Assembly: GCA_965178125.1 (NCBI GenBank) | Contig: OZ237735.1 | Location: 1,860,001-1,924,000, forward strand | Direction: 5' to 3' | Source of the DNA: Bilabrum cf. latius | Taxonomy: Eukaryota | DNA: 64,000 bases | Shown: positions 1-60,673 of the stretch, piece by piece | How positions within the stretch are numbered: the stretch's first letter is position 1 | Layout of the letters: every line of letters starts with the position of its first letter | Notes under the pieces: generated by a model | Databases searched by the model: none | The model's input: only the letters and a program-made list of their open reading frames with translations | What the model was told of the DNA's origin: nothing | Made by a program: the position numbers and the translations under genes

Positions 1-2
1 AC

Positions 3-3000
3 GATCTGGGTCACCTCCTGGAAGATGAGGGCATTCGAGACATCACGGACGAGCTGCTGGACGCCGTGGAGCAGCATGCGGGCCTCTTCAAGGAGCTCGA
101 GGCGAAGGAGGAAAGCGCCAAGGGCGTGACTATTGCCATTGAAGGTTCCATCGAGCACATCCTCCTGGGAGAACACGCGGCGCAGGAGGGGGGGCGTGCC
201 GCGCAGGAGGCGGCAGCTGCAGCCCGCAAGGCCAGGTTAGCTAAAGTGGTCAAGTCTCGAGTCCCCGTCGTCTCCCCGGCCGACATGAAGGTGCCCAAGA
301 CTCTTCGTATCAAGTCGCCTGCCAACCCAACGGTGCACGTGGATATTGACCTGGCCGACGTGCACTCGGACTTTGTCGAGAGACTTGGCGCAATCGACAA
401 GTACCGCGCGCATGCGCAGCTAAATGTCCCAGGAGACCGCCTCATGTTCGCATTGCAGTCCGCCGACATCGCCGAGACGGCAGAATACTATGCCAGTATA
501 CAGAGGACAGTAAACAGGATCGACGCAAGGATGGGGACGGACGCCGGTGCGGGCGCGGCCTGGCTCAGGAAGACCCACGGCATGGATGCGTCGGCATTGC
601 GCACGCAGGAGCAGACGTTCGCGCTGCTGGCAGAGGTCCGGGCCCGTCCCTACCCCACCGGCGAGACGGCATTCCTGCATGCAGACATCCTCAGCGATGC
701 TATTCACAAGGGGCGCGTGGATCCTCAGGATCCAGTCCTCAAGGCGAGAGCGCAGCTCAAGAACCGAATCGGTGCGGTGGGCGGGGATTCGTTCGAACTG
801 GGGCTCCGAGTGCTCACACTGCCCCCAGCCAAGGCTCGATCCGCGAAGCTACGTGATGCTACCGTGAGTCTCTGCGATGCCGAGCGAGAGCTGGACGAGC
901 TGCTGCACCTCAAGCGCGTCATCGATACCGCCGAGATAGCCGGTCTTGACCCTGTTACCTGCCTGCGAAGGGGGGTGCGCACAGATTTCGTTAGCGACCT
1001 TACCATGCCCTCGGACGTGGAAAATTACCTAGCAAAGGCAGTGTAGCGGTCAAACTCTGCGAGGGAGGCGTGGAGGAGGGCGGCGGAGGCGGCGGGTCCC
1101 GGCGCCCTCGCCGATCTCCCAGGGGACGTCCTGGACCGGGCTTACCGGGTCACCGCAATGGACCCCAGCAGCGAGGTGAATCACTTGCTCGAGAGCAGAA
1201 AGCACATGGAGGTGCAGGCACTGAGTAATCCAGGTGTCTTGGGCGAACGTGTGGATCCTGCCGTGCTCTAGAAGCACGCGGGCGTCGGCGGTGCTGCTGG
1301 GGTGATCGCCGATCGCCGGGCGGCACTGATGTAGCGCGCTCAGGCGGGGGGCAGGCAGCTCCAGAGACAGTTGTCCGATTTCGGCGGGTGGGAGAGCATC
1401 AGGTACCAGCTGGGCAGTGTTGACTACCTCGTGTTCCTGCAGGACCTGCAAAAGCAGACCCCGGAATTTTTTGCCGAAGCTCTCATGCAGTTGCCTCGTG
1501 GTCGCACGAATGCGATCGACGAGCTGATCGGAGTCGCAGTGGGAGCGACCGACAGCGCCCGCAAAGCAGCGAGAGAGAAAATCATCCTCGGAGCCGTTGA
1601 ATCTGCGGTACAGACGGTGGGTCTGAACAAGGCACCAAGTCCGCTCTTCTTCGCGGAGAACGTCCAGCTGCTGTCGATTTTGTCCGAAGAAATGACCGCC
1701 GATACTGCCTCCAAGGAGCTTGGCGCTGCTCTGGACACCCTGGGGGATGGCATGAAAGCGCTTCGAAAGGCTGCCAGCGGCAACGCCCTGGACGATGCCT
1801 AGGCGCAGGTCATGGGAGAGGTCATGGCGAGGCTTGAGCATTACGCTTTTATCGGAGGTGTGTCCACGTCGCTGGACAAGGAACTCAAGATGTGTTTGGA
1901 TGACAAGAAATTGCTAACCGAGGTAGTCCGTGCCGCGGAGAAGCCGGGCGGTGAGGACCTGCTGGATCTTGCCGTGGCGCTTCGAGGCGCCAATGGCCTC
2001 TCTGAGGGATTCAAGTATCATCCAGGCCTCCAGGTTCGGCTCGCGAAGCGCGTAGTGTTTGCTGGTGAGGAGCCATCACGATAGGCCGAGCTTTTGGTGC
2101 AGCCGGGGGCACTTGATCGAGTGGCCGCCTTCATGCGGATGCGCGGCGGGTATGGAGCGGAGGATGCCATGGACAGCCTCGTGGGCCTGGCGCTGGAGAA
2201 GGAGGGGCAGCGAGTGGGGCTGGGGCCCGCCATTATGATCACCCCTGTCCACCTGGATGCAGACGTGGTGGACTCCCTCTGGTGGGACGGCCCCGTGGGG
2301 CAGTCTCTCTTAGAGCAGGTGGCCAAGGGGGAGGCAGGCGGCAGCCCCTTTCAGAAGGAGGCGGCGATCCGGCAGATCATCGACGTGACGGGGTGGGCAT
2401 AGCCAATCCTCACGAAAACGCCCGAAACTATCAAGATCATATAGAGCGGGAAGAAGACGTGGACGAGGCTCGTACAGAAGCATGATGACCTTCTTCTCAA
2501 GACGCTCCTCTCACCCACCGACTACCCTGTATTCTAGTGGATGACGCGGAAGCATTGGAGTTTGCGGTACATGTCAGACCGAATGGGGCCCTATCGCACC
2601 CGAGCCGTCAAGCTCCTGAAGAATGAGAGGAGGGCTGAGCTGCTGGCGCAACATCTCCTGCATCCCGAGGATCTTCGGCGGGCGGTGGGGCCCAAAGGCC
2701 TTGCAGACCTGCAGCGACACGCCGATACGGCATGGGGGGCCAGGGCAAGAAGCGCGGCCCGCAAGCAAGCGGAAATCATCCAGCAGCTCGACGAGACGCT
2801 AGCGCAGCTGCGGGATGCCGACCTGAAGCAGGCAGCAAGTGGAGGGCTTGACAGGAGCGCTAAGCTGAACCGTGCGGCCAGGGCCAAGAAGGAAGCAATC
2901 GATCAAGCGGCCAGAATGCAGGCACAGCTGGACGATATTCCCATGATTCCCCGATCCATGTCTATTCAGGCGGACCTTGGGGAGGAGTTAGAGGAGATCA

Positions 3001-6000
3001 CGGTGGACGGGCTCATCAGCACTGGTGTGACGAGGCACGATGACTTGGACATCCTGCCGGTGGTGATGCAATCCGAGATGGTCAACGACAATTTGGCCTA
3101 TAGAGTGTTTTTGACAAAGAGCATCAACTTCGACGTGCCGTTGTCTGAGATCGACAAGGGCTTGCGCAACTTGGCGAAAGCCATGAGAAAAGCGGACGAT
3201 GCCGCCACCGAGGAGATGAGGGCGCAACTGCGGGCCGTCGTGAAGAGGGCCGACGGTGCCCAGGGAACACAGGCACTCATGGAGACTTCTTTTCCCATAT
3301 GGTCAGTCAAGGATGTCCACGACCATACCACGGCAGCGGTGCTCAGCGACTATAAAAACCTCGTTGAGGCTACCGTGGGGTTCCAGACCAACCCATCCGT
3401 GAGAAGCGAGGTCATTGCACAGCTTGCCCTGCGCCGTCCCGTGATGCCGCAGGCAGAGCTCGCCACGGCCTTATCCAAGCTGGATTCGCTGCCCAAGGTC
3501 AAGCAGCTGACGGAGGAGGCAGCGGGAGATATGGAGGCGGCCTTCAAGGCTTTCGACGCCAAGTCTCCAGGGACCCTCACTCGCGAGGAGTTCGATGTCC
3601 TTGCCTCTGCCACAACGAAGGAGGACGCCGCAGCCGCTCTTGGCCCCGCGATCCGCGAGCGGCCGATCTCGGAGTGGCCAGCTTCGGCGCTCATGGACGA
3701 GTCCGGGCAGCTGACGGCGATTGCCGAGCGGGGCCTGCAGCTCTACGACTCGATGCCTTCGACCTTCTTTTTCAACGACCGGTTCGCCCGGCAGGTGGGG
3801 TTTACCGAACGAGACGCCATGTTTCGCGGCCTGGCGGAACCGTTAACCATGGCGCCAGACGGCGTGCTGCTTCAGGCAGATAGACTGGGCGTGAACAAGG
3901 GTAGGTTGGAAAAGCTGGTGGGCAATCATGCCGCCATGGACGAGATGGGAAGCTCTCAGATCGAGCGGCGGGTTGCCGAGTACAACCAAAAGCCCACGAT
4001 GGAGTCGGACGGAGTGCCGCTCGGTACCTTCATGGGCGAATGGTGTGAGGACCACGGCATCGAGCTGGCCGTGGAGGCCGGTGACGAGGCTCGGAAGGCG
4101 GAGCAGGGCGAGGTGTTCATGTGGTGCCAGGCGCTGGACATGCCCATTCCCGAGTCACAGGCGGATTGGGACGACGCAAAGCGCCTATTCCATTCTCTCA
4201 AGCAGGCCAACGAGCGGTACCGCACCATCCTGAGCGACAAGCAGCTGGATTACATCCGTAATACCCCCAAGGAGGAGAAGCTGTCGGCCCTCTTCGACCC
4301 CAGCAACAGCGAGCTGTGCCTTACGAATGGCCAGACGGACGAGCTGCTGGGTAAACTGTCTCACTCTCTATGGCAAACCACGCACGATCTGTTGAACTAT
4401 AGGCAAATGATGCGGACGCTCACTGACGTGGACGCCTACGTTGTGAGCACCGGCGGGCAGTCCTCGAAGTCCGCCTTTGAGCAACTCAAGCGTGCAGGGC
4501 TGACTCGGCAGGAGGTGCGCGGTCGTGGAAACTGCTACTTCGATGCCGTCATGTAGTCGGCCGGTGACATCCAGGACCAGAAGGTTCTCCGTGCCAAGTA
4601 CGTGGAGGCATACAAGCAGGGGGTCGATGCCAAGCTATTGAGGACGAACGAGTTGCGCGACGCATCTTCCGACCTACTGGGACCGTCCTCTAGCCTGGGC
4701 GTCCTCGGCGTGGACGCAAACGCCATGATCCGAGAGATGGATAGGACGGGACTGAAGGCATCGGACGAGAAATATATGGCGGCCGCCCTCGGCCGTCCGT
4801 ATGTCTCGATCCGAGAGCCGGACCTCGTTGATGGCGGCAATATGCAGATTATGGTTTTCAATGCCGATAAGCTGGGCTAGGGACAATCACCGGTCATGGT
4901 GTACATGCAGTCTGGGCACGCCACGGCCGTGGTGGCAGACGACCCAGAGGCGGCCTTCAAGGCGCTGCAGGAGCTGGCGGACGCCGAAAAGGCCGCGAAG
5001 AATGCTGATGAAGCCGTCAAGAAGGCGGGGGGATCGGACGGTGGCAACCCGTCGTTCTTCGAAGGGCAGGAGCCCGTCCCAGAGGGTGAGCTGCAGGACG
5101 CGCTCGAGCACGGGGTGGACGTGGCTGACGTGTCAATAGGCAAGGATGGGGAGCTGGGCGTGGATGTGCAGCGGGGAGACCGGCAGGTCAAAACGCTCAG
5201 TGCAGACGAGGCAGATCTCCCGGTCGAAGGTCCTCTGTCCGCCCACGAGTTCGATCTCAGCGTCGACCCGCACATAGACATGCCTGAGCGACCGCCACAG
5301 GTGCCTCCGAGCCAGCTGCTGCGGCTGTCTGACGATGCAGCGGCGGACGTAACGGCTCTGAGTGCGGCATTGACGAATGTCCCGGCAGAGAGACCTATTC
5401 GGATCGTGGGCATCGGTGGGGGTGATGGAGCAGGGTCGGTAGGATAGGTGTTTGACAATACGGATGCCGTCTCCGAGTTCAACGGACGACTGATCGCCGA
5501 CGTCGACCGCGTGAGTCGCATTGTCGACCACCCAGAGGCCTTTCCTATCCTGCCACATGGCCCCCTCGTGCCTCAGCAGCAGCGGGCGGCGCTGCTCACC
5601 ATCGAGGCCAGATAGCAGCTGGACATAGCGGAGAGATTCCTGGAGGACTTCAATGAGCTGGAGGCCATGTTGGGAGAAGAGGAGGCTGCCTCAATGATGC
5701 TGGTTGAAGGGATGTCTAAGTAGCAGGCCGAGGACCGGGTGAAGGAGTACTCGGCTATTCTGGCTGCGCAATCCAGAGCCCCCAGGTCGTCGGCGATGGG
5801 ACTGGCCACCGATGTGGACGTGGTGTAGCAGGCCATCGCTGACATTCCGGACGATTCAATGTTTCTCAAGCAGGCGGAGCTCTTCGACGATGCTGCCGCT
5901 AAGATCGCGGAGGCAGAGCCGGACGATCCATCCCTGCCCCTCCGGCGGATTACGGAGCTAGGGGAACAGGAGGCGGCGGATGACGAGGTGGGGAAGCGGG

Positions 6001-7730
6001 CACACAATGTGGTTGAGCTGGTCAATATGGAGTGGATGGCGGCAATGGATCTACGGTACGCTCGCTCGCTGGACGAGGCTGCGACCTCGATGGATATGGA
6101 GAACAGCTGGCTCCTTGAGCAGACCTTCTTCGCAGGCGGAGAAGTGGGGGATGCCGCGGATCGGCTGTCGCAGCGGTTCCAGAAGGTGAGGGACTATCGT
6201 GAGGAGGTGCAGTCGATGTCCGCGGAGGAGTGGGCGGCGATATCCGCCCGGTGCAAATCTCAGTATTCCTTGAGCATCGGAGCTCAGGACAGTTTCGTTG
6301 CCAACCAGGACGCACACCAGCAGCTGCTGTCTTGGACGACGCGCAAGGTGCGACAGCTCACGGAGGCCCAGGTGCCCAAGTCGCAGTACCGCGCCCATGC
6401 GAAGCAGACGAACAGCGAACAGGCGGATGACTCAGGGGCACACCATCAGGACATGACGGCAGGCAAGGGCGGGGAGGGGCAAGGAGTAGACCTGCAAACC
6501 AACCACGAGCAGGAGCAGGAGCAGGAGCTCGATACTCCCTCCCTCATCGCCCTAGGGGGCAAGGCCAAGGCAGTGGCTGATGCCCACGGCTAGCTCCAGC
6601 TCCAGCTCGGGCGACACTGGCACTCTCGGCGCTTGAGCTCCAGCGGCGGCAAGTCATCCCACCGCAGGAACAGACATCGGCACCACGGCTCTCTCCGTGC
6701 CACTGCATCTACATCTGCCACTGCATCTGCAAGCACGCAGGCAGTCCATCGACTGGCCTCCAGCGAGGGGGTCACGAGCACGAGCAGGCGGCGGCGGGGT
6801 TACACCGGAGACTGTGTGCACACCAACCTGACAACGTGCCAAGTGCTGGAGCACGACACCAACATCCTGCGACCGGGACAGTTGCTTAAATACCCGCACC
6901 GGCTGATCCAGTAGAACGGGGACGACTACGCCATGCTGTAGGTGCAGCGGAAGTGCAGTCTGGAGCTGTAGTGGCACTACGAGGACTGCATTCTGGGCAT
7001 GGCCTGCACAAGGGAGTGGAAGATGCTGTGGGAGACAACCAGGGGAAACAAGGACTACGACGCCTACGGCTTCATGGACCAGTGCACGCTGGTGTTCGAC
7101 CGCGAGGGGAACCTTTTCCTCGTCAACGGGGTGGGCATGGTCATGTGGAAAACGGACACCATCGGGCTGCGGGGGCCCGTATCGCATCTAGAGGTGCAGG
7201 GCGACGGGAACTTGGTGGTCTACCGCGAGCGGGGCGGGGCCATCTGGAGTACGGAGACGGCGGGGCAGATGAGGAACTACCGGCCCACCGGCGAGTTTGG
7301 CGAGGACTTCGCGCACCTTCGCTACGGCCCCGAGGACCAGCTGTGCGACAAGACATTCAGCGAAGTTTGCGAGGATGCCACGGGGCAACACTTCATAGCG
7401 GCTGGTCAGCGGCTGGACTAGGGTCATTCGCTACGTCTGCGTGACTTCGAGCTCCGGATGCAGGGGGACGGCAACCTGGTGCTGTACTGGCAAGGAAAGA
7501 TGTAGGGGGAGACAGGGACGGACGGTGACGGCGAGGGGCCTTATCGTCTCATCGTAGATGCGTCGGGCCGGGTGATGGTACTATCGCAAAACACGAACGA
7601 GGAGTGGGACGAAGACGGCTTCGTGATGCGCATCGAGTCTCAAGGTAGAAGTGCCATGATGGTCCTGTACAACGGGAAGGACGTGGACCATCTTGGCACG
7701 TGGGAGTTCGCGTACAACCTGCAGAAGTAA
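3..7730 (+). CDS. Giant secreted lectin/OTU-like protein, copy 1 (5'-partial; TAG=Gln)
   Basis: ORF-track pieces at 66, 1371, 1812, 2094, 2541, 4602, 4896, 5859, 6633 and 6999 share one frame and are separated only by TAG; the frame ends at TAA 7728-7730. OTU-like VRGRGNCYFDAV (~4515-4550) with a downstream GH, and C-terminal bulb-lectin motifs VQGDGNLVVY and MQGDGNLVLY. Paralogue of 52793-60489. Confidence 0.85.
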
Positions 7731-8581
7731 GTGGGAGGCCCGTCGTCGGGCCCCGACGGTCGGGGCCAGCCTCTCGAGTAGCGTGCGAAACTACCTCAGA
7801 TTATTTAAATATGTTTTGAACAAAACATTCGGACAATCTGCTAAGTGAAACCAATGGTATAGTTGCGACCTCCCAACTTCCTCATCCGCACGTGGTCGGG
7901 TGATCCGATCCCTGGTCCGAGTCACTCGTCACCCACCCACACACCCATACCTCCACCTGCCCGGCCTGTGCCTCCACCTTCCAATCCGCCGTATCAACCA
8001 GGTGTCCCCACCAATCATTTCCTCCTCCACTAATCCCTCACCTGGTTGGGTAAACCGTCACCCCTACCGACTCCGCCGTCACCCCCCTTCGCCCAACCCT
8101 AGCCGCCGTTCCTGCTCGTACCTCACTGACCTGGCCTCATCGACAGCGCTCTCTCATCACTTCGGTACGTCGAATCTGATCCTGCACCTACAGCGGGTAC
8201 TGTGCTCAACGCACGACCTCAATCTCAGAGACCTTGTTGGCCTCACCAACTGAGAACAAAAGCCTACGTGCCGTGCCCCAGCGGATCCCCAAAGCGAGCC
8301 ATCCTAGTCTGCATTTGTACTTGAGAACTAATAATGGCGTAATTCAATCACGGTTTTAGATAAGATCGCGCGGATTGGATTGCGGGTGGGCGAAGGGGGC
8401 GAACTCGTATCCCGGATTTTTCTCAACCATCTACATACCGTGACGCACTACCCCGGAAGGAACGATAAATTTATGGGATTCAAACTACACGCTACCCAGG
8501 CTAAGAAGTCACCCGAAGGCTACTTCGACCGGAAGGAAACATCTCACTTACCAGCTCAAGCTGCAGCAGCTGCCAGCTGTG

Positions 8582-8835
8582 CGGAGAGAGAGAGAATATA
8601 ATATGTCTGAGTCAAAGCACACACCCAACTCCTCTACCACCCAGGTGATCACCTGAGATATGGTGCGTCTGTGGCGGGTTCGGTAACTTAACCCAACAAT
8701 GTATTTCTGTATTTCTGTATTTCCACCCCAAGAGGCAATCGCACTGGGCAGGTCGAACGGATCAGCAAGCTCACGCCATGGGCTCCGCAAGCTGGGCCGC
8801 TTTAGAGAGAGAATATAATATGTCTGAGTCAAAGC
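8582..8835 (-). mobile_element. Two short 5'-truncated 3' ends of the RLE-type non-LTR family (variant A)
   Basis: GGAGAGAGAATATAATATGTCTGAGTCAAAGC... motif at 8582 and 8804, matching units at 9913, 18276, 18378, 20770 and 20850. Confidence 0.75.
8643..8723 (+). mobile_element. 81-bp 3' remnant of an APE-RT element inserted in an RLE 3' UTR
   Basis: AGGTGATCACC...ACCCAACAA(TGTATTTC)3 resembles the 3' end of the 9974-17868 element; flanked by CACCC at 8638-8642 and 8724-8728. Confidence 0.75.
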
Positions 8836-9912
8836 GAGAGAGAGAAAATAGAGTTTTCGCACGCAATTCAATACCAGAGACAATCCGAGGACTGCCACCA
8901 AAGTAACGCGCACCTTAACAGGGGACCCAGCTGTACCCGCGTTGGCGGAGCCAGTCAGGACCTGAAAAGGCCTCTAAAGAAGTAGTTGGTCTGGTCAAGA
9001 CCGATACATGCCTAGGACCCGTGTCCTAAGCGCATCGCGTTGAGATCTCCTGGGAGTCAGACCAATTCGAACGTACGCAATGAGGGAGCATGCGCAAGGA
9101 AGGCCTGGCGAGGCGTGAGGTATTCAGCCTCTCGCCACCAGACCGCCACATTGTCCGCCTCTAGAACTTGTTGCCTGCTCCAGATCCGGGAGCGTGCTAG
9201 CCTTGCCGTTCCCTTCGCCCAGATGCGTTCTAGCACCTGAAGCTCCTTGCTGAGGGCGCAACGGCCCAGCGTTCCTGCCATCCACTCTCCGACGAACTAG
9301 TTCTCGGAGGGAGTCAGTATGCGTCCGAGCGAGTGGGCTCGGATTGCAAGGTCTCGGGCTGCTAGGCTGCCTGAGGTGAGTTGTGCCGCTACGCACAATT
9401 GGCAGGACTACAACCCCTCGATGGCTCGTCCGAAGCTCTCATTGGCCCTCTGCTACAAGCGTCGGATTGCCCGTCGGCACCGTTCTTGGAGTTGTTCGAG
9501 GGTGCCTTGGACGATTAAGAGCTCCAAGGAGTCTGTGTCCCCTCGGTGTTCTTGTGTCAGCACCTGCTCCGTTTTGACGTGTTCCATCCATAGTGCTCTC
9601 CCCACTGCCGTGGGTGCCCAGGGTACGTCCGTGTGCGTGGCTTCCGCGCGCATCATTTCGGCCTGTACCGAGCGTTCTCCTCTGTGGTGCATGGTCCCTT
9701 CCCGAGGGTAACGCCCAGTGAGCCATCGCAGGATGAGGCGACCATCTCGGCCTCGCCAGGTGCTCCGTGCTGTCGCCGGCATGGCCGAAGGGCCGAGGAT
9801 CCGGAAATTGTCCAAATTGATGCAGCTCTGTAGGTCTTTCATGCCTACAGAATCCTCATCGAACTTTGCCCAGGCGTCTGTCGCTACCGGATGCATCGTC
9901 GGATCTCCTAGT
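8836..9912 (-). mobile_element. 5'-truncated 3' part of a second APE-RT-related non-LTR family (ORF ~9910 to 9057, TAG=Gln)
   Basis: The translation (FRILGPSAM...GRLILRWLTGRYPREGT, ERIWAKG, AHAPSL) aligns by eye with the C-terminus of the 10024-17643 ORF (AFGPGAM...GRRILRIRAGQYPQQGT, ERQWAKG, AHAPHL). Its 3' UTR recurs at 46967-47173. Confidence 0.75.
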
Positions 9913-10023
9913 CGGAGAGAGAATATAATATGTCTGAGTCAAAGCACACACTACCCAACTACAACGACCACCCGGGGCTACTACTATGGCCCAGCTTTGC
10001 ACAAGGCCGGGTCAGGCACGTAC

Positions 10024-10948: not shown

Positions 10949-10980
<32 letters not shown>

Positions 10981-17643: not shown

Positions 17644-17868
17644 GGCAACAGGCTGGGGGCCTGTGGGGGACCACACTGATGGCGAAGAATGGCAACTCGG
17701 CGGCATAGGCTGAGAACGGGGGGCCTTTGGCCTGAAAGGGTCGGGGGTCTTGTAGTCCTTTGTTTTTAGGGCTCCTCTGGATCTAGGTGATCACCCAAAC
17801 CCCCTCGGGGGCGATGGTGCATCTGGGTGTTTATGGAATCTTTACCCAACAATGTATTTCTGTATTTC

Positions 17869-41902: not shown

Positions 41903-42030
41903 AAAATGATAAAATTATAAAAATCAATACACCTACGCGCCCAGAATTGCGGAAATATATCTTAATATCCTAATATATTATCGCAATTTGGGGCGCTGGT
42001 ATTATGCCATAAAGTATATTACTAGATTAA

Positions 42031-47173: not shown

Positions 47174-47227
47174 TCGGTGAAGGTCAAGTGCTGTCTCGAA
47201 ACTCCGAATCCGGATTAAATTAATATA

Positions 47228-48155: not shown

Positions 48156-51100
48156 ATGAATGTGCCTGCATGTGTAACGATCTTTGCTCTATTGGGTGTT
48201 CAAGCTTCTTGGACCCTGGAGTACCTCTCTGCAGAAGGTGCCATGCACAACCACGTAGAAGGCCAATGCTACCCGCGTTCTATCAAACAGTGCAATGTTA
48301 TTGACGGTGACCGTTTTATGATGCGTCCAGGGGACATTCTGCTGCAGGGCAGGCGGCTGGTTACGTCAGCATTCGGTGGCGCAGATGTTCAGCTAGTGCT
48401 CGAAGACGGCGGCAAACTGCAACTTTAGGAGGTAAGGTTTTGTGTTGCCCAGCGAAGTACAATGAATTTTATGATGTTCCATTGTCACGAAAGCATCCAT
48501 TCGCCCGAGTCGGCTCGTTATCTCTGTGTATTCCATGTCAGCTGCCTCGTGTCACGGATGCACCTCGCAGCGCAAGGGAGACGACAAATCCCCCTATTGG
48601 ACTTCAGACTCGGGCGAGGCATAGTCAGCAGGACCGTTTGCCCTTTTGCTTACGTCCGATGGGGACTTGGTTGTCCTTGGGGCGGGGGGCCAGCCCAGCG
48701 AGGCCTGGCACCAGGCGGGCGATCCCTCCCCGGACGCCGTCCTGCAGGCGCTGTCCGACAGCGCAGCAGACGACAGCATCGAGGTCGTCTGGAGCCGAGT
48801 GCTATCTGGCGTGGGAACCGTGAAGGAGCTGGCACTGCATGGCTCGGGCGACCTCGTGGCGCATGACGAGCACGGCGACCGCCTGTGGCACACCCGGACG
48901 GAGTCCACGCGCATGTGGATGAATCTGCTCATCTCCAAGCTGCGCTTCGGGGGCAAGAAATACCACAAGAATGGCGATTTTGACGGCTGGGAAAGGTACT
49001 GGGATCTGCGGTAGAGCTACTCGAGCGACCACTATAACATGGCCAAGCTATCGGGGGGCATCGCGCGGCAGCACGGGGGAGAATACTGCGGCGGCGGGGA
49101 TATATCTGCGTGTGAGCCCGTGGTGGACATGAACGTGTCTTCGCTGCACCCCGGGCAGATGCTTCCGGAAGGGAGGTCCCTCTACTCGGAAGCGGTGATG
49201 CAGACTGTGGAAGGCAAGAAAATGCAGGGCGTTCGCAACGCGGTCAACTGGCTCGTTTCCGGGGCCGAGATGGAGATCAAGATCGAGACCAGGAGCGGGA
49301 AGCCATGGCTGAATGCAGCCCAGTCCAAACTGACCATGCAGTCGGATGGACGACTGGTGCTGAGGTACAGAGAGCACGACTGCGATGCCAGCTCCTTCGA
49401 GCATGTGGAACTGGACGGCGGGGCGATTCTATGCCAGGGGTTGGAAAACTTTGACCTGCTGCCCTTCGGGAAACACTTCTGCAGATGTCTCGATAACCCA
49501 GACCGCAACCTGCTGGCCGAGATGGAGGCGGCGGATGACGAGTGGCATGAGGTATGGGCGACATCCGAGCAGCCGGTAGACCCAGCCAAGCACTAGGGTC
49601 CGTTCAGTTTCGTCGTGTCCACGGGGGGCGACCTCGAGGTGGTGGACGGGCAGGGCGGGACGGTGTGGTCGCAGTCCACGGGCGATGCGGGCCCCATCCA
49701 GTGCGCTCGTATCAGCGCCATCAAGCGGCGGCCCAGGCAGGAGGACTGGGATGACGCCAACGTGAACCTGGGGGTATACCGCTCCGACGCGCAGCACAGG
49801 CGGGACATGTGCGGGCCGGAGTCACGGGGCCACCTGACCATGACGGACCCTGACCTGGTGTGGACGACGGCGGTCACCGGGAAGCCGGTCCCTGGCATCG
49901 CCGTCAGGACCAAGAGCGTGCAGCTGCAGCTCGCCGTGGCGCGCACCGACGACCCCATGCGGCCCTACTGCGGGGCGGACTACCTGGAGCTGTGCGAGGA
50001 GGTGCCTGAGGGTGCTGACGAGATGCGTCCTGGGCAGGTGCTGCGGCAGGGTCGGGCTCTTCGTACTGACATCGGTGAACTCGTCATGCAGACGGACGGC
50101 AACCTCGTGCTGCATCTGGGCACGGTTCGAAAGAAGGTCCTGTGGTCCTCCAAGACGCCCCCCGGGCATAGCGATGCCATCAAGCAGGTAGGACCATACG
50201 CGCTTGTGTTCACGTACCGGGCCGAGCTCGCCATCGTGGACGGGCGAGGACGCGTGCTCTGGTTCGTCGACGGTCCCGCCCTGTACATCAACTGGATCAA
50301 GCCGACCTAGTACGTTGGCCTGGACAAAATGTTCTCACCGGCGACCTTTCTGGTGGACGCCTTCGACCGGGGACTGGGGGCTGCCTTTACCGGAAATGTC
50401 GTGGCCTCGCTCTACACCTCCAACGTAATTGAGGTGCACAAGTGGAGGTTCCGCCTGCAGAGTGACGGAAACGCCGTGCTGTTTTGCAACGGCAACAGGC
50501 CAGTCTTCCGAACGAATACGGCGGGGTGGCACATGGAGGATGACGAGTGGCCGCAGGCGGTGCTGAGCGAGGACAACGTCTACGGAGACGCGTGGACTCG
50601 GTTCGATCCCAGGAGTGGGGACTCCTTCTTTCAGTGGAACAAATTCGCGGTGCAGTTTGGGGTGGAGATAGCTGGCGATATCGCCGTGGGCATCGCGTCC
50701 GGGGGCATGGTCACTGCTGCCAAGTATGGTGCTAAGGGCATCAAGGCCGTGTACCGGGTGGGACTGAGCAAGGCCCTTAAGCAGGGGGTCAGGAGCGGCG
50801 ACGCGTGGCTCGTGAAGATGTCCCTCAAGTCGAGCGGCAAGTGGGCCAGTAAGTCCGCCTCACTGGAGATGGGCACGCTCCTCAAGTTGGCGGGCAAGTC
50901 GGTCAAGACGTGGGCCGAAAAGAAGGTGCTCGCGGTTGTCAGTAGCCTAGGCTCGCTTCTAGACGGGGCCAAGCAGGCACTGTACCGCCTCTCGAAGGCC
51001 AGCATAGGCAGCGTGGCAAAAGGGCTGGTCGTGGGGGTACTCAAGGTGGCATGGCGAGTGGGCTATATCGCGTTCCGGATCACATTCGCTGTGGGCAAGC

Positions 51101-54100
51101 TCATCATTACGATGCCGTTTGAGATGATGCGCCCGTGGGGCGAGATCGGCGTCTCCCAGGTCAAGGCCATCTGTTTGCTGGCGGATGCGGCGAGCAACGG
51201 GATTCTCGCCAAAGCCGTCCGATCCGTGCCCTTCAAGCTCCGTAACAGGGCCATCCTGTCTGCCGAGGAGGCCGTGGTGCATGACGTCATGGCGAGGTCT
51301 GCCTCCGACGCCATGAATAGGATGGAGCGCGGCTCCTTCAGCGTCGGAAGCGTACCCAAACGGTCCTATAGCGTCCCCGACATGCCCAAGTACAAGCGAT
51401 CCAGCCTCTTCCATGACCTGGAGGACGTTGAGTTCCTGCCCCAGGCCCCCGGCGGGTCCGGGGGGGGGCTCGGCCTCGACCTGGGACCCAAGGGGGACAT
51501 CCTGGAGCAGCCAAAGATCCTTGATGACTACATCGGGAAGCAGATTGTGAAGCTGCCCGAGCTGCCTCCCGCCTCTGAGCTCAAGATCCCCGAGGGCTTG
51601 CCGGAACCATTCGCACGGCGCATGGAGACAGCTGTGGACAAGGGTGGAAGGGCTCAAGCCGACACCGAGAGGCTGATCAAGGCATAGCCGCAGGTTCTGG
51701 AGACGTATTCTATGGAGAGGTTGGTCGAGGTGAACAGGCTCATGTATGATAACCAGGCCACACTGGAGTACTACGCCGCCGTACGAGACTACGTGGGGCA
51801 CCTGGATCGCATGCGGCTGCAAGGGAAACCGCTCCCCGACGGCTTTGCCTCCGTGGACGATTTGGTGGCCTCCAAGTTCGGCATGGGTCGAGCGGCGATC
51901 GAGCAGACGTTCCAGTCACGCCTGATGGCAGACGTCACGGCATGGGGAGCACCTGCCGGGCTGGAGGCAAACATGTTGAGCGAGCTCGTTGAAGTGGTCG
52001 GATTACTTGACTTGGATAAGCTGGCGTTCCAGCAGTACCAGGCTGCTGCTGATGCGCTTGGTGTGGTGCAGCGGGCGCTGCGTGGGAAGGAGGCGGTGGA
52101 CAGGGCAGCGTTGGTGGATGCTATACGGAGTCAGCCTCAGGAGCTGCGACTGGCGGCAGAGGTGCTGCAGCCCGACATCGCAGCACGGGCAATGCAGTAC
52201 CCGGGACTCGCCGCCGATCAAGTCCTTGCTATGGCGAAGGAGAATCCTGAGGCCGCTGGCCAGCTTGCCCAGGCGTGCGAGTCCTCCATGAAGGAGCAGC
52301 AGCGGCTGGCCGCGAGCAAGCAGAGGCAAATTAAGAAAGCTGAAACCAAGCTCCGGGAGGACAGCCCCCTGGTAAAGCATCCGGATGCCCGGCTCTACGA
52401 GGTGGCCGTGCAGGAGGCAGGTCAAGAGCGGGACGCGTGCCTACTGACCACGCAGCTGGGCCTCGAGGTGGGCGGCGATCCCAGCACACCCGCAATGGTC
52501 TTGAACGGATTCTAGTCACATTTTGCCGGATTAGAGGCAGCCAAAGACGAGACGATCGTGGCCCTTCGAAGGGCAGCGGAGGCAGAGGCCAAGCTGGAGC
52601 GCCTGGAGATGGCCAGGGCGATTGCCGATGCGGCCGCTGTGGGCAAGGCGGACCCTTCGGTTGCCATTAAGACCCTGGGCGTGGACGTCCCCGAGGCTGA
52701 ACTGGACAATGCCATCAAGGCTGCATCGGAGAAGTGGGATGCCGCACGGAAAGAGGCGATCGATCACCTGGACTTGGAGGGGAAAGGCATGGACGATCTG
52801 GGTCACCTCCTGGAAGATGAGGGCATTCGAGACATCACGGACGAGCTGCTGGACGCCGTGGAGCAGCATGCGGGCCTCTTCAAGGAGCTCGAGGCGAAGG
52901 AGGAAAGCGCCAAGGGCGTGACTATTGCCATTGAAGGTTCCATCGAGCACATCCTCCTGGGAGAACACGCGGCGCAGGAGGGGCGTGCCGCGCAGGAGGC
53001 GGCAGCTGCAGCCCGCAAGGCCAGGTTAGCTAAAGTGGTCAAGTCTCGAGTCCCCGTCGTCTCCCCGGCCGACATGAAGGTGCCCAAGACTCTTCGTATC
53101 AAGTCGCCTGCCAACCCAACGGTGCACGTGGATATTGACCTGGCCGACGTGCACTCGGACTTTGCCGAGAGACTTGGCGCAATCGACAAGTACCGCGCGC
53201 ATGCGCAGCTAAATGTCCCAGGAGACCGCCTCATGTTCGCATTGCAGTCCGCCGACATCGCCGAGACGGCAGAATACTATGCCAGTATACAGAGGACAGT
53301 AAATAGGATCGACGCAAGGATGGGGACGGACGCCGGTGCGGGCGCGGCCTGGCTCAGGAAGACCCACGGCATGGATGCGTCGGCATTGCGCACGCAGGAG
53401 CAGACGTTCGCGCTGCTGGCAGAGGTCCGGGCCCGTCCCTACCCCACCGGCGAGACGGCATTCCTGCATGCAGACATCCTCAGCGATGCTATTCACAAGG
53501 GGCGCGTGGATCCTCAGGATCCAGTCCTCAAGGCGAGAGCGCAGCTCAAGAACCGAATCGGTGCGGTGAGTGGGGATTCGTTCGAACTGGGGCTCCGAGT
53601 GCTCACACTGCCCCCAGCCAAGGCTCGATCCGCGAAGCTACGTGATGCTACCGTGAGTCTCTGCGATGCCGAGCGAGAGCTGGACGAGCTGCTGCACCTC
53701 AAGCGCGTCATCGATACCGCCGAGATAGCCGGTCTTGACCCTGTTACCTGCCTGCGAAGGGGGGTGCGCACAGATTTCGTTAGCGACCTTACCATGCCCT
53801 CGGACGTGGAAAATTACCTAGCAAAGGCAGTGTAGCGGTCAAACTCTGCGAGGGAGGCGTGGAGGAGGGCGGCGGAGGCGGCGGGTCCCGGCGCCCTCGC
53901 CGATCTCCCAGGGGACGTCCTGGACCGGGCTTACCGGGTCACCGCAATGGACCCCAGCAGCGAGGTGAATCACTTGCTCGAGAGCAGAAAGCACATGGAG
54001 GTGCAGGCACTGAGTAATCCAGGTGTCTTGGGCGAACGTGTGGATCCTGCCGTGCTCTAGAAGCACGCGGGCATCGGCGGTGCTGCTGGGGTGATCGCCG

Positions 54101-57100
54101 ATCGCCGGGCGGCACTGCTGTAGCGCGCTCAGGCGGGGGGCAGGCAGCTCCAGAGACAGTTGTCCGATTTCGGCGGGTGGGAGAGCATCAGGTACCAGCT
54201 GGGCAGTGTTGACTACCTCGTGTTCCTGCAGGACCTGCAAAAGCAGACCCCGGAATTTTTCGCCGAAGCTCTCATCCAGTTGCCTCGTGGTCGCACGAAC
54301 GCGATCGACGAGCTGATCGGAATCGCAGTGGGAGCGACCGACAGCGCCCGCAAAGCAGCGAGAGAGAAAATCATCCTTGGAGCCGTTGAATCTGCTGCAC
54401 AGACGGTGGGTCTGAACAAGGCACCAAGTCCGCTCTTCTTCGCTGAGAACGTCCAGCTGCTGGCGATTGTGTCCGAAGAAATGACCGCCGATACTGCCTC
54501 CAAGGAGCTTGGCGCTGCCCTGGACACCCTGGGGGAAGGCATGAAAGCGCTTCGAAAGGCTGCCAGCGGCAACGCCCTGGACGATGCCTAGGCCCAGGTC
54601 GTGGGAGAGGTCATGGCGGAGCTTCGGTATTGCGCTAACTTGGGGGGCGTTTCCAAGCCACTAAGTAGGGAACTCAAGATGTGGGTGGGTGACGAGAATT
54701 TGCTTACCGAGGTAGTCCGTGCCGCGGAGAAGCCGGGCGGTGAGGACCTGCTGGATCTTGCCGTGGCGCTTCGAGGCCCCAATGGCCTCTCTGATGCCTT
54801 GGTCAAATACCCAGACATCGAGTTTCGGCTCTCGAAGCGCGTTCTGTTCGCGGATGAGGCGGCGCCACGACAGGCCGAGCTTTTGGTGCAGCCGGGGGCA
54901 CTTGATCGAGTGGCCGCCTTCATGCGGATGACTCGGAGCGAGGATGGATCGAAAAGCGTCATGGACAGCCTCGTGGGCCTGGCGCTGGAGAAGGAGGGGC
55001 AGCGAGTGGGGCTGGGGCCCGCCATTATGACCACCCCTGTCCACCTGGATGGAGTGGTGGAGGCCTCCCTCTGGTGGGACGGCCCCGTGGGGCAGTCTCT
55101 CCTAGAGCAGGTGGCCAAGGGGGAGGCAGGCGGCAGCCCCTTTCAGAAGGCGGCGGCGATCCGGCAGATCATCGACGCGAAGGGGTGGGCAAGGTTTGCC
55201 TGCACGAAGCGCCCTGCGAGAAAGATCATATAGAAGGGGGAGAAGACATGGACGAGGCTCGTGCAGAAGCATGATGACCTTCTTCTCAAGACGCTCCTCT
55301 CACCCACCGACTACCCCATATTCTAGTGGCTGCAGCGGGAGCATTGGAGTTTGCGGTACATGTCGGGCAGTATGGGGCCATACCGCACCCGAGCCGTCAA
55401 GCTCCTGAAGAATGAGAGGAGGGCTGAGCTGCTGGCGCAACATCTCCTGCATCCCGAGGATCTTCGGCGGGCGGTGGGGCCTAAAGGCCTTGCAGACCTG
55501 CAGCGACACGCCGAGAAGGCATGGGGGGCCAGGGCAAGAAGTGCGGCCCGCAAGCAGGCGGAAATCATCCAGCAGCTCGACGAGACGCTAGCGCAGCTGC
55601 GGGATGCCGACCTGAAGCAGGCAGCAAGTGGAGGGCTTGACAGGAGCGCTAAGCTGAACCGTGCGGCCAGGGCCAAGGAGGAAGCAATCGATCAAGCGGC
55701 CAGAATGCAGGCACAGCTGGACGATATTCCCATGATTCCCCGATCCATGTCTATTCAGGCGGACCTCGGGGAGGGGTTAGAGGAGCTCACGGTGGACGGG
55801 CTCATCGGTACTGGTGTGACGAGGTACGATAACGTGGACATCCTGCCGGTGGTGATGCAATCCAAGATGGTCAAGGACAAGGTGGCATTGATGATGTCGC
55901 GGGAGGGCATTCACTTCGACGTGCCGTTGTCTGAGATCGACAGGGACTTGCGCAACTTAGCGAAAGCCATGAGAAAAGCGGACGATGCCGCCACCGAGGA
56001 GATGAGGGAGCAACTGCGGGCCGTTGTGAAGAGGGCCGACGGTGCCCAGGGAACACAGGCACTCATGGAGACTTCTTTTCCCATATGGTCAGTCAAGGAT
56101 GTCTACGACCATACCACAGCAGCGGTGCTCAGCGACTATAAAGACCTCGTTAGGGCTACCCTGGGGTTCCAGACCAACCCATACGTGAGAAGCGAGGTCA
56201 TTGCACAGCTTGCCCTGCGCCGTCCCGTGATGCCGCAGGCAGAGCTCGCCACGGCCCTATCCAAGCTGGATTCGCTGCCCAAGGCCAAGCAGCTGGTGGA
56301 GGAGGCAGCGGGAGATATGGAGGCGGCCTTCAAGGCTTTCGACGCCAAGTCTCCAGGGACCCTCACACGCGAGGAGTTCGATGTCCTTGCCTCTGCCACA
56401 ACGAAGGAGGACGCTGCAGCCGCTCTTGGCCCCGCGATCCGCGAGCGGCCGATCTCGGAGTGGCCAGCTTCGGCGCTCATGGACGAGTCCGGGCAGCTGA
56501 CAGCGATTGCCGAGCGGGGCCTGCAGCTCTACGACTCGATGCCTTCGACCTTCTTTTTCAACGACCGATTCGCCCGGCAGGTGGGGTTTACCGAACGAGA
56601 CGCCATGTTTCGCGGCCTGGCAGAACCGTTCACCATGGTGCCAGACAGCGTGCTGCTACAGGCAGATGGACTGGGCGTGGACCAGGGCATGTTGGAAAAG
56701 CTGGTGGGCAGTCATGCCGCCATGGACGAGATGGGAAGCTCTCAGATCGAGCGGCGGGTCGCCGAGTATAACCAAAAGCCCACGATGGAGTCGGACGGAG
56801 TGCCGCTCGGTACCTTCATGGGCGAATGGTGTGAGGACCACGGCATCGAGCTGGCCGTGGAGGCCGGTGACGAGGCTCGGAAGGCGGAGCAGGGCGAGGT
56901 GTTCATGTGGTGCCAGGCGCTGGACATGCCCATTCCCGAGTCACAGGCGGATTGGGACGACGCAAAGCGCCTATTCCATTCTCTCAAGCAGGCCAACGAG
57001 CGGTACCGCACCATCCTGAGCGACAAGCAGCTAGATTACATCCGTAATACCCCCAAGGAGAAGAAGCTGTCGGCCCTCTTCGACCCCAGCAACAGCGAGC

Positions 57101-60100
57101 TGTGCCTTACGAATGGCCAGACGGACGAGCTGCTGGGTAAGCTGTCTCACTCTCTATGGCAAACCACGCACGACCGAAAGGGCCATTGTCTAATGATGTA
57201 GACGCTCGAGAAGTTGGACGCCTACGTTGTGAGTACCGGCGGGCAGTCCTCGAAGTCCGCCTTTGAGCAACTCAAGCGTGCAGGGCTGACTCGGCAGGAG
57301 GTGCGCGGTCGCGGAAACTGCTACTTCGATGCTGTCATGCAGTCGGCCGGTGACATCCAGGACCAGAAGGTTCTCCGTGCCAAGTACGTGGAGGCATACA
57401 AGCAGGGGGTCGATGCCAAGCTATTGAGGACGAACGAGTTGCGCGACGCATCTTCCGACCTCCTGGGACCGTCCTCTAGCCTGGGCGTCCTCGGCGTGGA
57501 CGCAAACGCCATGATCCGAGAGATGGATAGGACGGGACTGAAGGCATCGGACGAGAAATATATGGCGGCCGCCCTCGGCCGTCCGTACGTCTCGATCCGA
57601 GAGCCGGACCTCGTTGATGGCGGCAATATGCAGATTATGGTTTTCAATGCCGATAAGCTGGGCAAGGGACAGTCACCGGTCATGGTGTACTTACAGACGG
57701 GGCATGCCACGGCCGTGGTGGCAGACGACCCAGAGGTGGCCTTCAAGGCGCTGCAGGAGCTGGCGGACGCCGAAAAGGCCGCGAAGAATGCTGACGAAGC
57801 GGCCAAGAAGGCGGGGGGATCGGACGGTGGCAAGCCGGCGTTCTTCGAAGGGCAGGAGCCCGTCCCAGAGGGTGAGCTGCAGGACGCGCTCGAGCACGGG
57901 GTGGACGTGGCTGACGTGTCAATAGGCAAGGATGGGGAGCTGGGCGTGGATGTGCAGCGGGGAGACCGGCAGGTCAAAACGCTCAGTGCAGACGAGGCAG
58001 ATCTCCCGGTCGAAGGTCCTCTGTCCGCCCACGAGTTCGATCTTAGCGTCGACCCGCACATAGACATGCCTGCGCGACCGCCACAGGTGCCTCCGAGCCA
58101 GCTGCTGCGACTGTCTGACGATGCAGCGGCGGACGTAACGGCTCTGAGTGCGGCATTGACAAATGTCCCGGCAGAGAGACCTGTAAGGATCGTGGGCATC
58201 GGGGGGGGTGATGGAGCGGGGTCGGTAGGGAAGGTGTTTGACAATACGGATGCCGTCTCCGAGTTCAACGGGCGACTGATCGCCGACGTCGACCGCGTGA
58301 GTCGCATTGTCGACCACCCGGAGGCCTTTCCTATCATGCCACAGGGCCCCCTCGTGCCTCAGCAGCAGCGGGCCGCGCTGCTCGCCATCGAGGCCAGACA
58401 GCAGCTGGACATAGCGGAGAGGGTCCTGGATGACTACAAGTAGCTGGAGGCCGCATTCGGGGAAGAGGAGGCTGCCTCAATGATGCTGGTGGAAGGGATG
58501 TCAAAGTAGCAGGCCCAGGACCGGGTGAAGGAGTACTCGGCTGTTCTGGCTGCGCAATCTAGAGCCCCCGGGTCGTCGGCGATGGGACTGGCCACCGATG
58601 TCGATGTGGTGTAGCAGGCCATCGCTGACATTCCGGACGATACCATGTTTCTCAGGCAGGCGGAGCTCTTCGACGATGCTGCCGCTAAGATCGCAGAGGC
58701 AGAGCCGGACGATCCATCGATGCTCCTCCGGCGGAGGACGGAGCTAGGGGAACAGGAGGCGGTGGGCGATGAGGTGGGCAAGCGGGCACGCAATGTGGTT
58801 GAGCTGGCCAATATGGAGTGGATGGCGGCAATGGATCTACGGTACGCTCGCGAGCTGGACGATGCTGCGACCACGATGGATCTGGACAACAGCTGGCTCC
58901 TTGAGCAGACCTTCTTCGCAGGCGGAGAAGTGGGGGATGTCGCGGATCGGCTGTCGCAGCGGTTCCAGAAGGTGAGGGACTATCGTGAGGAGGTGCAGTC
59001 GATGTCCGCGGAGGAGTGGGCGGCAGTATCCGCCCGGTGCAAATCTCAGTATTCCTTGAGCATCGGAGCTCAGGACAGTTTCGTTGCCAACCAGGACGCA
59101 CACCAGCAGCTGCTGGCTTGGACGACGCGCAAGGTGCGACAGCTCACGGAGGCCCAGGTGCCCAAGTCGCAGTACCGCGCCCATGCGAACCAGACGAACA
59201 GCGAACAGGCGGATGACTCAGGAGCACCCCAAAGCAAGGGCGGGGGGGAGCAAGGAGTAGACCTGCAAACCAACCAGGAGCAGGAGCTCGATACCCCCTC
59301 CCTCATCGCCCTAGGAGGCAAGGCCAAGGCAATGGCTGATGCTCATGGCTTGCTCCAGCTCTAGCTCGGGCGACACGGGCACTCTCGGCACTCGAGCTAC
59401 AGCGGCGGCAAGTCATCCCACCGCAGGAACAGACACCGGCACCGCGGCTCTCTCAGTGCATCTGCATCTGTATCTGTATCTGTATCTACAAGCACGTAGA
59501 CAGTCCATCGACTGGCCTCCAGCAAGGGGGGGACGAGCACGAGCAGTCGGCGACGGGGCTACATCGGGAACTGTGTGCACACCAACATGACAACGTGTCA
59601 AGTGTTGGAGCACGACACTAACATCCTGCGACCGGGGCAGCTGCTTAAATACCCGCACCGGCTGATCCAGTAGAACGGGGACGACTTCGCCATGCTGCAG
59701 GTGCAGCGGAAATGTAGCCTGGAGCTGTAGTGGCACTACGAGGACTGCATTCTGGGCATGGCCTGCACAAGGGAGTGGAAGATGCTGTGGGAGACAACCA
59801 GGGGAAACAAGGACTACGACGCCTACGGCTTCATGGACCAGTGCACGCTGGTGTTCGACCGAGAGGGGAACCTTTTCCTCGTCAACGGGGTGGGCATGGT
59901 CATGTGGAAAACGGACACTATCGGGCTGCGGGGGCCCGTGTCGCATCTTGAGGTGCAGGGCGACGGGAACCTGGTGGTCTACCGCGAGCGGGGCGGGGCC
60001 ATCTGGAGTACGGAGACGGCGGGGCAGATGAGGAACTACCGGCCCACCGGCGAGCTTGGCGAGGACTTCGCGCACCTTCGCTACGGCCCGGAGGACCAGC

Positions 60101-60489
60101 TGTGCGACAAGACTTTCAGCGACGGGTGCGAGGATGCCACGGGGCAGCACTTCATAGCGGCAGGTCAGCGGCTGGACTAGGGGCATTCGCTACATCTGCG
60201 TGACTTTGAGCTCCGGATGCAGGGGGACGGCAACCTGGTGCTGTACTCGGAAGGAAAGATGTAGTGGGAGACAGGGACGGACGGTGAAGGCGAGGGGCCC
60301 TATCGTCTCATCGTAGATGCGTCGGGCCGGGTGATGGTACTATCGCAAAACACGAACGAGGAGTGGGACGAAGACGGCTTCGTGATGCGCATCGAGTCTG
60401 AAGGTAGGAGTGCCATGATGGTCCTGTACAACGGGAAGGACGTTGACCATCTTGGCACGTGGGAGTTCGCGTACAACCTGCAGAAGTAA
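48156..60489 (+). CDS. Giant secreted lectin/OTU-like protein, copy 2 (~4,064 aa; exons 48156-48431, 48571-60489)
   Basis: Signal-peptide-like MNVPACVTIFALLGVQA; phase-0 GTAAGG...GCAG intron 48432-48570; bulb-lectin motifs MQSDGRLVL, MQTDGNLVL, LQSDGNAVL; hydrophobic helices ~50640-51200; OTU-like GNCYFDAV; C-terminal lectin repeats; all exon-2 track ORFs share one frame; TAA 60487-60489. Confidence 0.85.
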
Positions 60490-60673
60490 TGGAGGCCCGT
60501 CTTCGGGGCCGGCCTCTCGGGTAACTTGCAAGAGCTGTGGGGTCACGGATCGTTGCGGACCGTGCTTGCGTGGCCCTCTACCCCACCGCAGTTGGATCGG
60601 ACATCCGGATCGTTTAACGTCATTGATTTAAGAGAAGTATCATACTACAAACGGAAGCCACTGCAACCTTACT

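Follow-up and report, generated by a model that had tools for sequence, protein, structure and literature searches.

Lectin modules of the bulb type occur in several described systems. The cited passages describe the lectin-like bacteriocins LlpA, putidacin L1 and pyocin L1 as secreted bacterial toxins made of two tandem B-lectin domains (PMC3585409, PMC3916391, PMC6240691, PMC6465234). The locus described here lies in a stretch of 64,000 nucleotides (nt) from Bilabrum cf. latius, referred to below as the window (contig OZ237735.1, positions 1,860,001 to 1,924,000 of the forward strand). The window holds two copies of a giant gene. Copy 2 is complete and copy 1 is cut by the window edge. The predicted product carries B-lectin modules at both ends, a long middle region and a segment with a Cys...His motif pair. 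This pair resembles the Cys and His motifs of the OTU proteases, a family of which some members are embedded in large viral polyproteins and typical members have an Asp three residues before the catalytic Cys.

A gene for about 4,000 residues at 48156-60489, invisible under the standard code, had been proposed in a preliminary description made from the sequence alone, and both points held. Residue numbers given here are those of the long open reading frame (ORF) at 48526-60489, which encodes 3,987 amino acids (aa) (P0001); residue 16 is the start of exon 2 at 48571. With translation table 11, the region was split on this strand into ORFs of at most 671 aa. Once TAG was translated as glutamine, a single frame with 22 in-frame TAG codons was obtained, ending at TAA. 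Copy 1 behaved in the same way: the ORF at 3-7730 (2,575 aa, 20 TAG codons) formed a single frame with TAG as glutamine, open at its 5' end and ending at TAA. Translation with table 6 overran the terminal TAA of both ORFs, so TAA keeps its role as a stop. Over the 3,972 codons of 48571-60486, neither TAA nor TGA occurred in the coding frame, whereas the other two frames had 79 and 97 of them; TAG was about equally frequent in the three frames (22 in the coding frame, 25 and 14 in the others). Similarly, TAA and TGA were absent from the 2,575 codons of copy 1, against 58 and 56 in its other frames. All other long ORFs of the window, host-like or virus-like, also contained in-frame TAG and used TAA or TGA as a stop.

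The amino acid encoded by TAG was deduced from sequence comparisons. When the two copies were aligned by codon, TAG stood in both at 12 positions and in only one of them at a further 12, the partners of the latter being CAG (six), AAG (two), AGG, CGG, GAG and TTG. In addition, the TAG at 49012 was CAG in contigs from runs X6, X7 and X8 and in part of those from run X1. Because of this pairing with CAG between the copies and in the run contigs, glutamine is the best reading of TAG. The best overall reading of the locus is a nuclear gene of a GC-rich eukaryote in which TAG encodes glutamine and the stops are TAA or TGA. The GC content at third codon positions was 0.75-0.77 in the giant gene vs 0.68 in the neighbouring host gene. 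This host-like value, the spliceosomal-type intron described below and the use of the host's code point to a host origin. No tRNA genes and no Rfam matches were found in the 64-kb window.

The end of exon 1 at 48431 directly precedes GTAAGG, and the AG at 48569-48570 abuts a codon boundary of the long ORF. Excision of 48432-48570 fuses exon 1 in frame with this ORF and gives a product of 4,064 aa. The intron, also present in the preliminary description, was found to be omitted in contigs from X6, X7 and X8 (three of the four runs, from two studies). These contigs lack exactly 139 nt with GT..AG ends (joint 48429->48569, cut +2). The intron was retained in X1, the best-matching run. The library type of the runs was not recorded; a tool guessed RNA for X6 and X7 and 'probably DNA' for X8. 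The contigs lacking the intron come either from spliced RNA or from an intron-less allele in relatives, and the junction is supported in either case. One X8 contig of 7,815 nt ran from 48159 across the junction to 56103 and crossed six TAG codons of the window sequence, one of them the TAG at 49012 that is CAG in the contigs. Further run contigs covered 56184-58319, 56712-60247 and 58571-60489; positions 56104-56183 were unbridged among the pieces listed. The contigs from X6, X7 and X8 started at 48100-48159. Among 12 of the 32 indels of the run contigs, four sets were multiples of three (+3, +3, +15 and +12) and a +1/-1 pair at 57207/57214 compensated in X8 only. Exon 1 begins with MNVPACVTIFALLGVQAS, followed by W. 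It shows a short polar stretch, 11 hydrophobic residues and then V-Q-A, and its first 18 residues were read by eye as a putative signal peptide.

The duplication was confirmed. The two copies share 92% of their protein residues (2,363/2,576), and positions 1-7764 are 94.7% identical to 52793-60521 at the DNA level, the match stopping 32-34 nt past the stop codon. The ratio of nonsynonymous to synonymous substitution rates (dN/dS) between the copies was 0.51 overall and varied along the gene. Residues 1424-1873 were almost identical in the two copies, which suggests gene conversion. Residues 2024-2474 were the most divergent, with a proportion of nonsynonymous differences (pN) close to that of synonymous differences (pS) (0.149 vs 0.159; 0.074 vs 0.071). 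The values were pN 0.013 and pS 0.079 for the Cys...His segment, and pN 0.012-0.026 and pS 0.10-0.16 for the C-terminal lectins. Purifying selection thus acts on the lectin modules of both termini and on the Cys...His segment. Six public protein fragments (P0003-P0006, P0008 and P0009, mostly from one 48.6-kb contig) resemble a gene of the copy 1 type, with the same N-terminal lectins and hydrophobic block. Copy 1 is therefore probably complete outside the window. The locus holds an intact, constrained, duplicated host gene. Its arrangement is most simply read as two genes in tandem, with mobile DNA entering the spacer between them at a later time. The hairpin-like flank shared by the two copies may be a 3'-end signal. 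The coordinates of the features are collected in Table 1.

Table 1. Positions in the window of the giant gene, its predicted parts and the neighbouring elements
Feature	Positions	Strand	Description
Exon 1, copy 2	48156..48431	+	ATG at 48156, 92 codons; signal-peptide-like start, then first third of a lectin module
Intron	48432..48570	+	139 nt, GT..AG
Exon 2, copy 2	48571..60489	+	3,972 codons + TAA, 22 in-frame TAG
N-terminal lectin region	48571..50622	+	Residues 16-699; about 3-4 degenerate B-lectin modules (estimate)
Lys/Ala/Gly-rich helical block (predicted)	50623..51405	+	Residues 700-960; from composition
Ala/Leu-rich region	51406..56292	+	Residues 961-2589; relatives only near-identical fragments
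Conserved module	56293..57165	+	Shared with the only distant relative found, P0007; motifs YDSMPS and LFDPS..CLTNGQ.D
OTU-like Cys...His segment	57229..57762	+	GRGNCYFDAV, Cys2932 (57319-57321); TGHATAVV, His3060 (57703-57705)
Basic Ser-rich low-complexity linker	59353..59571	+	Ends SSRRRG, directly before the C-terminal lectins
C-terminal lectin tandem	59572..60486	+	Residues 3683-3987; two B-lectin modules (estimate)
Shared 3' flank	60490..60521 and 7731-7764	+	GC-rich, hairpin-like (GAGGCC...GGCCTC), directly after TAA; the duplication ends here
Copy 1	1..7764	+	Cut by window edge; ORF 3..7730, then 34 nt of duplicated 3' flank
LINE-like ORF	9718-17643		2,641 aa; Pfam RVT_1, E 7e-16; 17 TAG needed as sense codons
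Repeat-bounded element	17868-21107		Short repeats at bounds and inside, e.g. 17868-18065 = 20910-21107 at 100%
Virophage- or polinton-like element, complete, endogenous	21098-46887		About 25.8 kb, GC about 0.30; 1,543-nt inverted terminal repeats, 99.87% identical
GC-rich insert in the AT-rich virophage-like element	40123-41902		Split direct repeats 40123-40252 = 40455-40584 and 40279-40454 = 41727-41902, both 100%
Neighbouring gene	60674-64000	-	>1,091 aa, 6 in-frame TAG, hydrophobic C-terminal anchor

The assignment of GNA-type (bulb-type, beta-prism II) lectin modules to both ends of the protein, already proposed earlier, is solid as judged from sequence matches in Pfam, NCBIfam and the PDB. 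With Pfam B_lectin (PF01453; cut-off 32.4 bits), the whole of P0001 scored 43 bits (E 7.3e-11), the best stretch being residues 3773-3827. The N-terminal 710 aa also scored above the cut-off (37.4 bits, E 4e-09), and the C-terminal 329 aa alone fell just short of it (31.1 bits). Strict sugar-site motifs of the form QxDxNxVx[YFH] were present at residues 522, 645, 3811 and 3899, as QxDxNxVx[HF] at the first two and as the canonical QGDGNLV[VL]Y at the last two; about eight more sites were degenerate. NCBIfam LLB_putidacin (NF033557) matched in three stretches (E 1.9e-24), its 86.5 bits being below the 275-bit cut-off. In a search of PDB sequences (E up to 1), 34 of the 35 chains matched were B-lectin chains, namely plant lectins, pyocins L1 and L2, putidacin L1 and a mycobacterial LysM lectin. 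The two ends also matched each other: internal BLAST aligned N-terminal stretches with the C-terminal modules at E ~2e-06, and exon 1 matched the start of the C-terminal module at E 2e-05 (BLASTP). A Cys-x7-Cys motif present in exon 1 also opens the C-terminal tandem. The number of modules was estimated from the motif count as three to four at the N-terminus and two at the C-terminus. The SSRRRG linker is a candidate processing site, a role that we infer only. A listing of GG and dibasic motifs gave no usable evidence on processing sites.

An OTU-like domain had been placed at 57280-57720, and this claim stood in part. The Cys/His pair lies inside these limits and is kept in both copies (4533-4535 and 4917-4919 in copy 1). 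Both residues were invariant in the three available sequences, which are themselves 92-93% identical to each other. The GNCYF...GH motifs of the segment resemble what we take to be the Cys and His motifs of OTU proteases. The OTU fold itself obtained no match with a hidden Markov model (HMM) or with a structure, and the one positive lead came from the Atlas language-model look-alike search. In this search (recognition 2776), 19 of 30 look-alikes belonged to the set of clusters carrying PF02338. The cluster listed from this set had a score of 0.90, with 174/256 features common and the family present on 19% of its members; the top three matches were unnamed bacterial clusters. An OTU or papain-like fold is judged somewhat more likely than not for this segment. 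A scan of viral contigs with the alignment of the OTU-like segment gave no match.

The block of residues 700-960 is indeed rich in Ala, Gly and Lys by composition, as first described. Only one stretch of it exceeded 1.4 on the Kyte-Doolittle scale, residues 825-865 (maximum 1.55), with Lys and Arg inside. The AlphaFold model of the block was all-helical and unreliable (predicted local distance difference test, pLDDT, 43.3). In Pfam the block matched no pore-forming family and gave only SH3_ISE2 (E 0.013), under its cut-off. The best score of its Atlas look-alike search was 0.85, with a low recognition of 1297. Beyond the block, 11 overlapping 400-aa windows of the middle region matched nothing above cut-off in Pfam. 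A Csm6-HEPN match (E 0.0044, 17.2 bits vs a cut-off of 27) was dismissed, since no Rx4-6H motif was seen in it by eye. A weak internal repeat was found between residues 1070-1156 and 1567-1657 (E 0.008). The middle is rich in Ala, Leu, Glu and Arg, with Cys and Trp scarce; this composition and two low-confidence models suggest that it is largely helical.

In public protein sets the gene was present only as fragments of 96-1,461 aa. These fragments end in out-of-frame tails, which correspond to frameshifts and not to TAG. Exhaustive phmmer with residues 2300-3499 gave five matches: four fragments 86-95% identical, and P0007. The latter is a 271-aa metagenomic fragment matching 290 residues upstream of the Cys...His segment (2590-2875), with 37% identity in phmmer and 34-35% in alignments. 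Two metagenome scans for the DNA surrounding P0007 returned nothing. A full-length word search among proteins of 2,192-6,978 aa yielded 1,881 scored candidates, none at E <= 0.001. The same type of search with the OTU-like piece (E up to 10) recovered only the near-identical P0004. Residues 690-2300, searched among shorter proteins, recovered only P0008 and P0009. No counterpart of the whole architecture was found in these searches. Literature listings and a few passages contained nothing pertinent on a lectin-OTU protein or on this code in a virophage-bearing flagellate. The plastid UGA = Trp change of Phaeocystales (PMC12480563) does not match the window. Halocafeteria was considered and rejected: a preprint gives a host GC of 47%, which does not match the window.

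The reading that we prefer, and to which we give an even chance, is that of a lineage-specific secretory multivalent lectin with a possible built-in cysteine protease. Two intact tandem paralogues, each of about 4,064 residues, would enter the secretory pathway via the N-terminal signal peptide. Their products would be multivalent glycan binders that act extracellularly, at the cell surface or within a phagosome. Through its two lectin ends, the protein would attach to sugars of the mannose or rhamnose type carried by prey, by pathogens or by the coat of the cell itself. The mostly helical, lineage-specific middle of about 2,900 residues would be a spacer or scaffold. The conserved Cys...His module, OTU or papain-type in appearance, might in the simplest case cut its own precursor or a bound target.

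Several observations weigh against this reading. Secretion rests on the reading by eye of the first 18 residues, and GNA-type lectins are also found in cytosolic proteins. The joined form of exons 1 and 2 might be an intron-less allele and not spliced RNA, given the unrecorded library type of the runs. Among the 12 of 32 indels considered above, no compensation was seen for the single-base deletions at 54931 and 55202 (X6 and X8) and at 57214 (X6 and X7). These indels all fall in the most divergent segments, where the relatives' copies are possibly not intact. For the protease, the 234-aa OTU-like piece matched no Pfam family at E up to 10, PF02338 included. It matched nothing in NCBIfam and PHROGs, only a weak and unrelated Drt5 in PADLOC (E 0.0068), and one irrelevant PDB sequence (E 1). 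The AlphaFold2 model of the segment, built from a 3-row alignment, had a mean pLDDT of 42.3 and was unusable. Foldseek with this model found no match in the PDB at E <= 0.001. Neither the Cys nor the His has an evident acidic neighbour that could be the third catalytic residue. Because this usual partner is not evident, an active deubiquitinase would be less probable than an OTU or papain-like fold.

Three other explanations of the protein were weighed, and each was judged unlikely. The first is an AB-toxin-like effector, in which the lectins would bind a target cell, the block would insert into its membrane and a deubiquitinase-like cargo would enter the target's cytosol. The order of the domains is compatible with it (binding, hydrophobic/amphipathic block, enzyme-like module, more binding). 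The hydrophobic stretch of about 40 residues lies amid Lys-rich amphipathic helices, which brings to mind the buried hairpin found in colicin-type pore domains. On a secreted protein, a deubiquitinase would be of use only within another cell, and pN ~ pS over residues 2024-2474 is often seen in arms-race proteins. Against these points, no toxin, translocation or pore family matched any part of the protein, the Atlas search of the block was weak and the OTU fold is only putative. The membrane insertion or pore put forward in the preliminary description was not upheld by the single stretch above the Kyte-Doolittle limit, the lack of a family match and the poor model of the block. Its comparison with an AB or polymorphic toxin comes down to an analogy of domain order. 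The AB-toxin reading is thus possible by analogy but unsupported.

The second is a membrane-anchored surface receptor or adhesin, which we also find doubtful. Its anchor would be residues 825-865, alone or with the weaker stretch 709-733, and the N-terminal lectins would face outward. With a single crossing, the middle and the OTU-like module would be in the cell's own cytosol, a location that would give a deubiquitinase-like module ordinary substrates. The signal-like start and the only strongly hydrophobic stretch, some 900 residues into the chain, would suit this topology, and the loop that separates the two hydrophobic stretches is rich in Lys, in keeping with the positive-inside rule. However, the main stretch holds Lys and Arg and barely exceeds the limit of 1.4. 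One crossing would also put the Cys-rich C-terminal lectin tandem in the cytosol, whereas the Cys-x7-Cys motif common to exon 1 and this tandem argues for one compartment for both ends.

The third, improbable to a similar degree, is a purely structural protein, a lectin-ended rod or matrix component of a coat, an extrusome or mucilage, in which the Cys...His pair would be a chance look-alike. The lack of HMM or fold support for a protease is in line with this, as are the composition of the middle and the largely helical character of both low-confidence models. Yet few parts of the gene are as constrained as the Cys...His segment (pN/pS ~0.16), whose language-model look-alikes are mostly in OTU-carrying clusters.

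A more elaborate version of the toxin-like reading was considered quite improbable. A free-living protist would make a self-delivering, glycan-targeted giant effector that docks through its two lectin ends on another cell or on a glycosylated giant-virus particle and crosses a membrane via the amphipathic block and its hydrophobic hairpin, the OTU-like protease then serving as a ubiquitin-directed cargo or setting one free. If true, this would be a eukaryotic counterpart of the bacterial AB or large multi-domain toxins, in a TAG-recoding lineage, kept as two diverging paralogues. Finally, the idea that the locus is not one gene and consists of adjacent genes, a decaying pseudogene or an assembly artefact, open only under an arbitrary code, was dismissed as highly improbable: only fragments appear under the standard code and among the database proteins of a related assembly, and the run contigs break at several common places, but the coding frame is free of TAA and TGA in both copies, purifying selection acts on both termini and on the Cys...His segment, a 7.8-kb contig spans six TAG codons of the window and the splice junction, the other long ORFs of the window likewise need TAG as a sense codon, and the database fragments do not end at TAG.

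The two copies flank about 40 kb of nested mobile DNA, in agreement with the preliminary description, which had them bracket a mobile-element island. Window GC is about 0.60 in the flanks (1-20 kb and 48-64 kb) and about 0.30 in the island between them. A 209-nt direct repeat (8833-9040 and 46966-47174, 98% identical) encloses the whole mobile island of about 38 kb. In the LINE-like ORF, a separate OTU-like pair of motifs (DGYCLIDS ... GGHYSAV) precedes the reverse transcriptase; when this region was compared by BLASTP with the OTU-like piece of the giant gene, no similarity was found. The repeat-bounded element may be another mobile element. It contains a minus-strand 641-aa ORF (18565-20490) without a Pfam match.

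The virophage-like element encodes a Prim-Pol/helicase, a capsid protein (Sputnik V20 C-terminal domain), a penton-like protein, a Cys protease, a packaging ATPase and an rve integrase with a chromodomain. The genes listed each contain 1-12 in-frame TAG codons and stop at TAA or TGA; the element therefore uses the host's non-standard code. A scan of viral contigs with its capsid protein gave no match. An intergenic element of about 75 nt was present in at least 14 copies between 21394 and 44760 (for example 26441-26545, 31138-31250 and 41899-42011). It consists of an AT-rich loop of about 28 nt flanked by two GC-rich arms, CGCCCGAAATTGCGG and CCGCAATTCTGGGCG, which are inverted repeats of each other and almost invariant across the copies. 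The element may mark where transcription of the virophage-like genes starts or ends. The GC-rich insert contains a minus-strand 420-aa ORF with a weak Phage_integrase match (E 2.6e-04), and from its sequence it resembles a short tyrosine-recombinase element of the DIRS/Ngaro type that lies within the virophage-like one.

Upstream of copy 2, the contig depth at 47600-48063 was three to five times that of the gene in X1 and the contigs diverged past 48063, so this segment has the appearance of a repeat present in many copies. A further stretch with GT..AG ends, 47894-48025 (132 nt), was missing from contigs of X6 and X8. On the other side, the neighbouring minus-strand gene consists almost entirely of tandem coiled-coil repeats with units of about 24 and 31 aa (...ELEGQVASLQEELSAARE...).

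Provided that the gene model is correct, annotation with the standard code misses or shreds some 24 kb of coding sequence in the window, together with every other long gene. The protein joins a known sugar-binding module to about 2,900 residues almost without relatives among the billions of proteins searched, and is thus an entry point to lineage-specific 'dark' protist protein space. It may also bear on how phagotrophs recognize prey or pathogens. Should the Cys...His module prove to be a working OTU-type protease on a secretory protein, the toxin-like reading would gain merit.

Compared with described systems, the locus is most like the GNA-related lectins (PF01453), including the multi-domain 'chimerolectins', with significant B_lectin matches at both ends and four sugar-site motifs. 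Its best PDB sequence matches were plant tandem and single-domain lectins, led by 1dlp_A (E 9.8e-08). It is unlike them in its length of about 4,064 aa, in the splitting of the modules between the termini and in the roughly 2,900 unrelated residues between these. The C-terminal ~305 residues form a two-module B-lectin tandem of about the size of LlpA, as in the lectin-like bacteriocins, and match the chains of pyocin L1, pyocin L2 and putidacin L1 at E 2e-04 to 4e-04. However, the family score remains far below its cut-off, plant lectins match better and the tandem here forms the C-terminal end of a giant protein from a eukaryote. The kinship to the putidacin L1 family is at the domain level only, and the protein is not a member of it. 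With the OTU proteases (PF02338) the Cys...His segment shares GNC[YF]F..A around the Cys and a G-H motif 128 residues later. In the low-confidence model, the Cys begins a helix and the His begins a strand. It is unlike typical OTUs in having Arg in place of Asp at position -3 from the Cys and no Asp/Asn after the His. With large clostridial or MARTX-type toxins only an order of module types is common: carbohydrate-binding repeats, a hydrophobic/amphipathic block and an embedded Cys-protease-like module. The gene is unlike them in being a eukaryotic nuclear gene with an intron and in having no sequence or profile similarity to any toxin family; none was matched in Pfam, NCBIfam, PHROGs or PADLOC by any part, the 11 middle windows included. 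Not classifiable as an OTU, toxin or pore family, the protein is best placed, from its domain matches, as a giant chimeric lectin of the GNA type.

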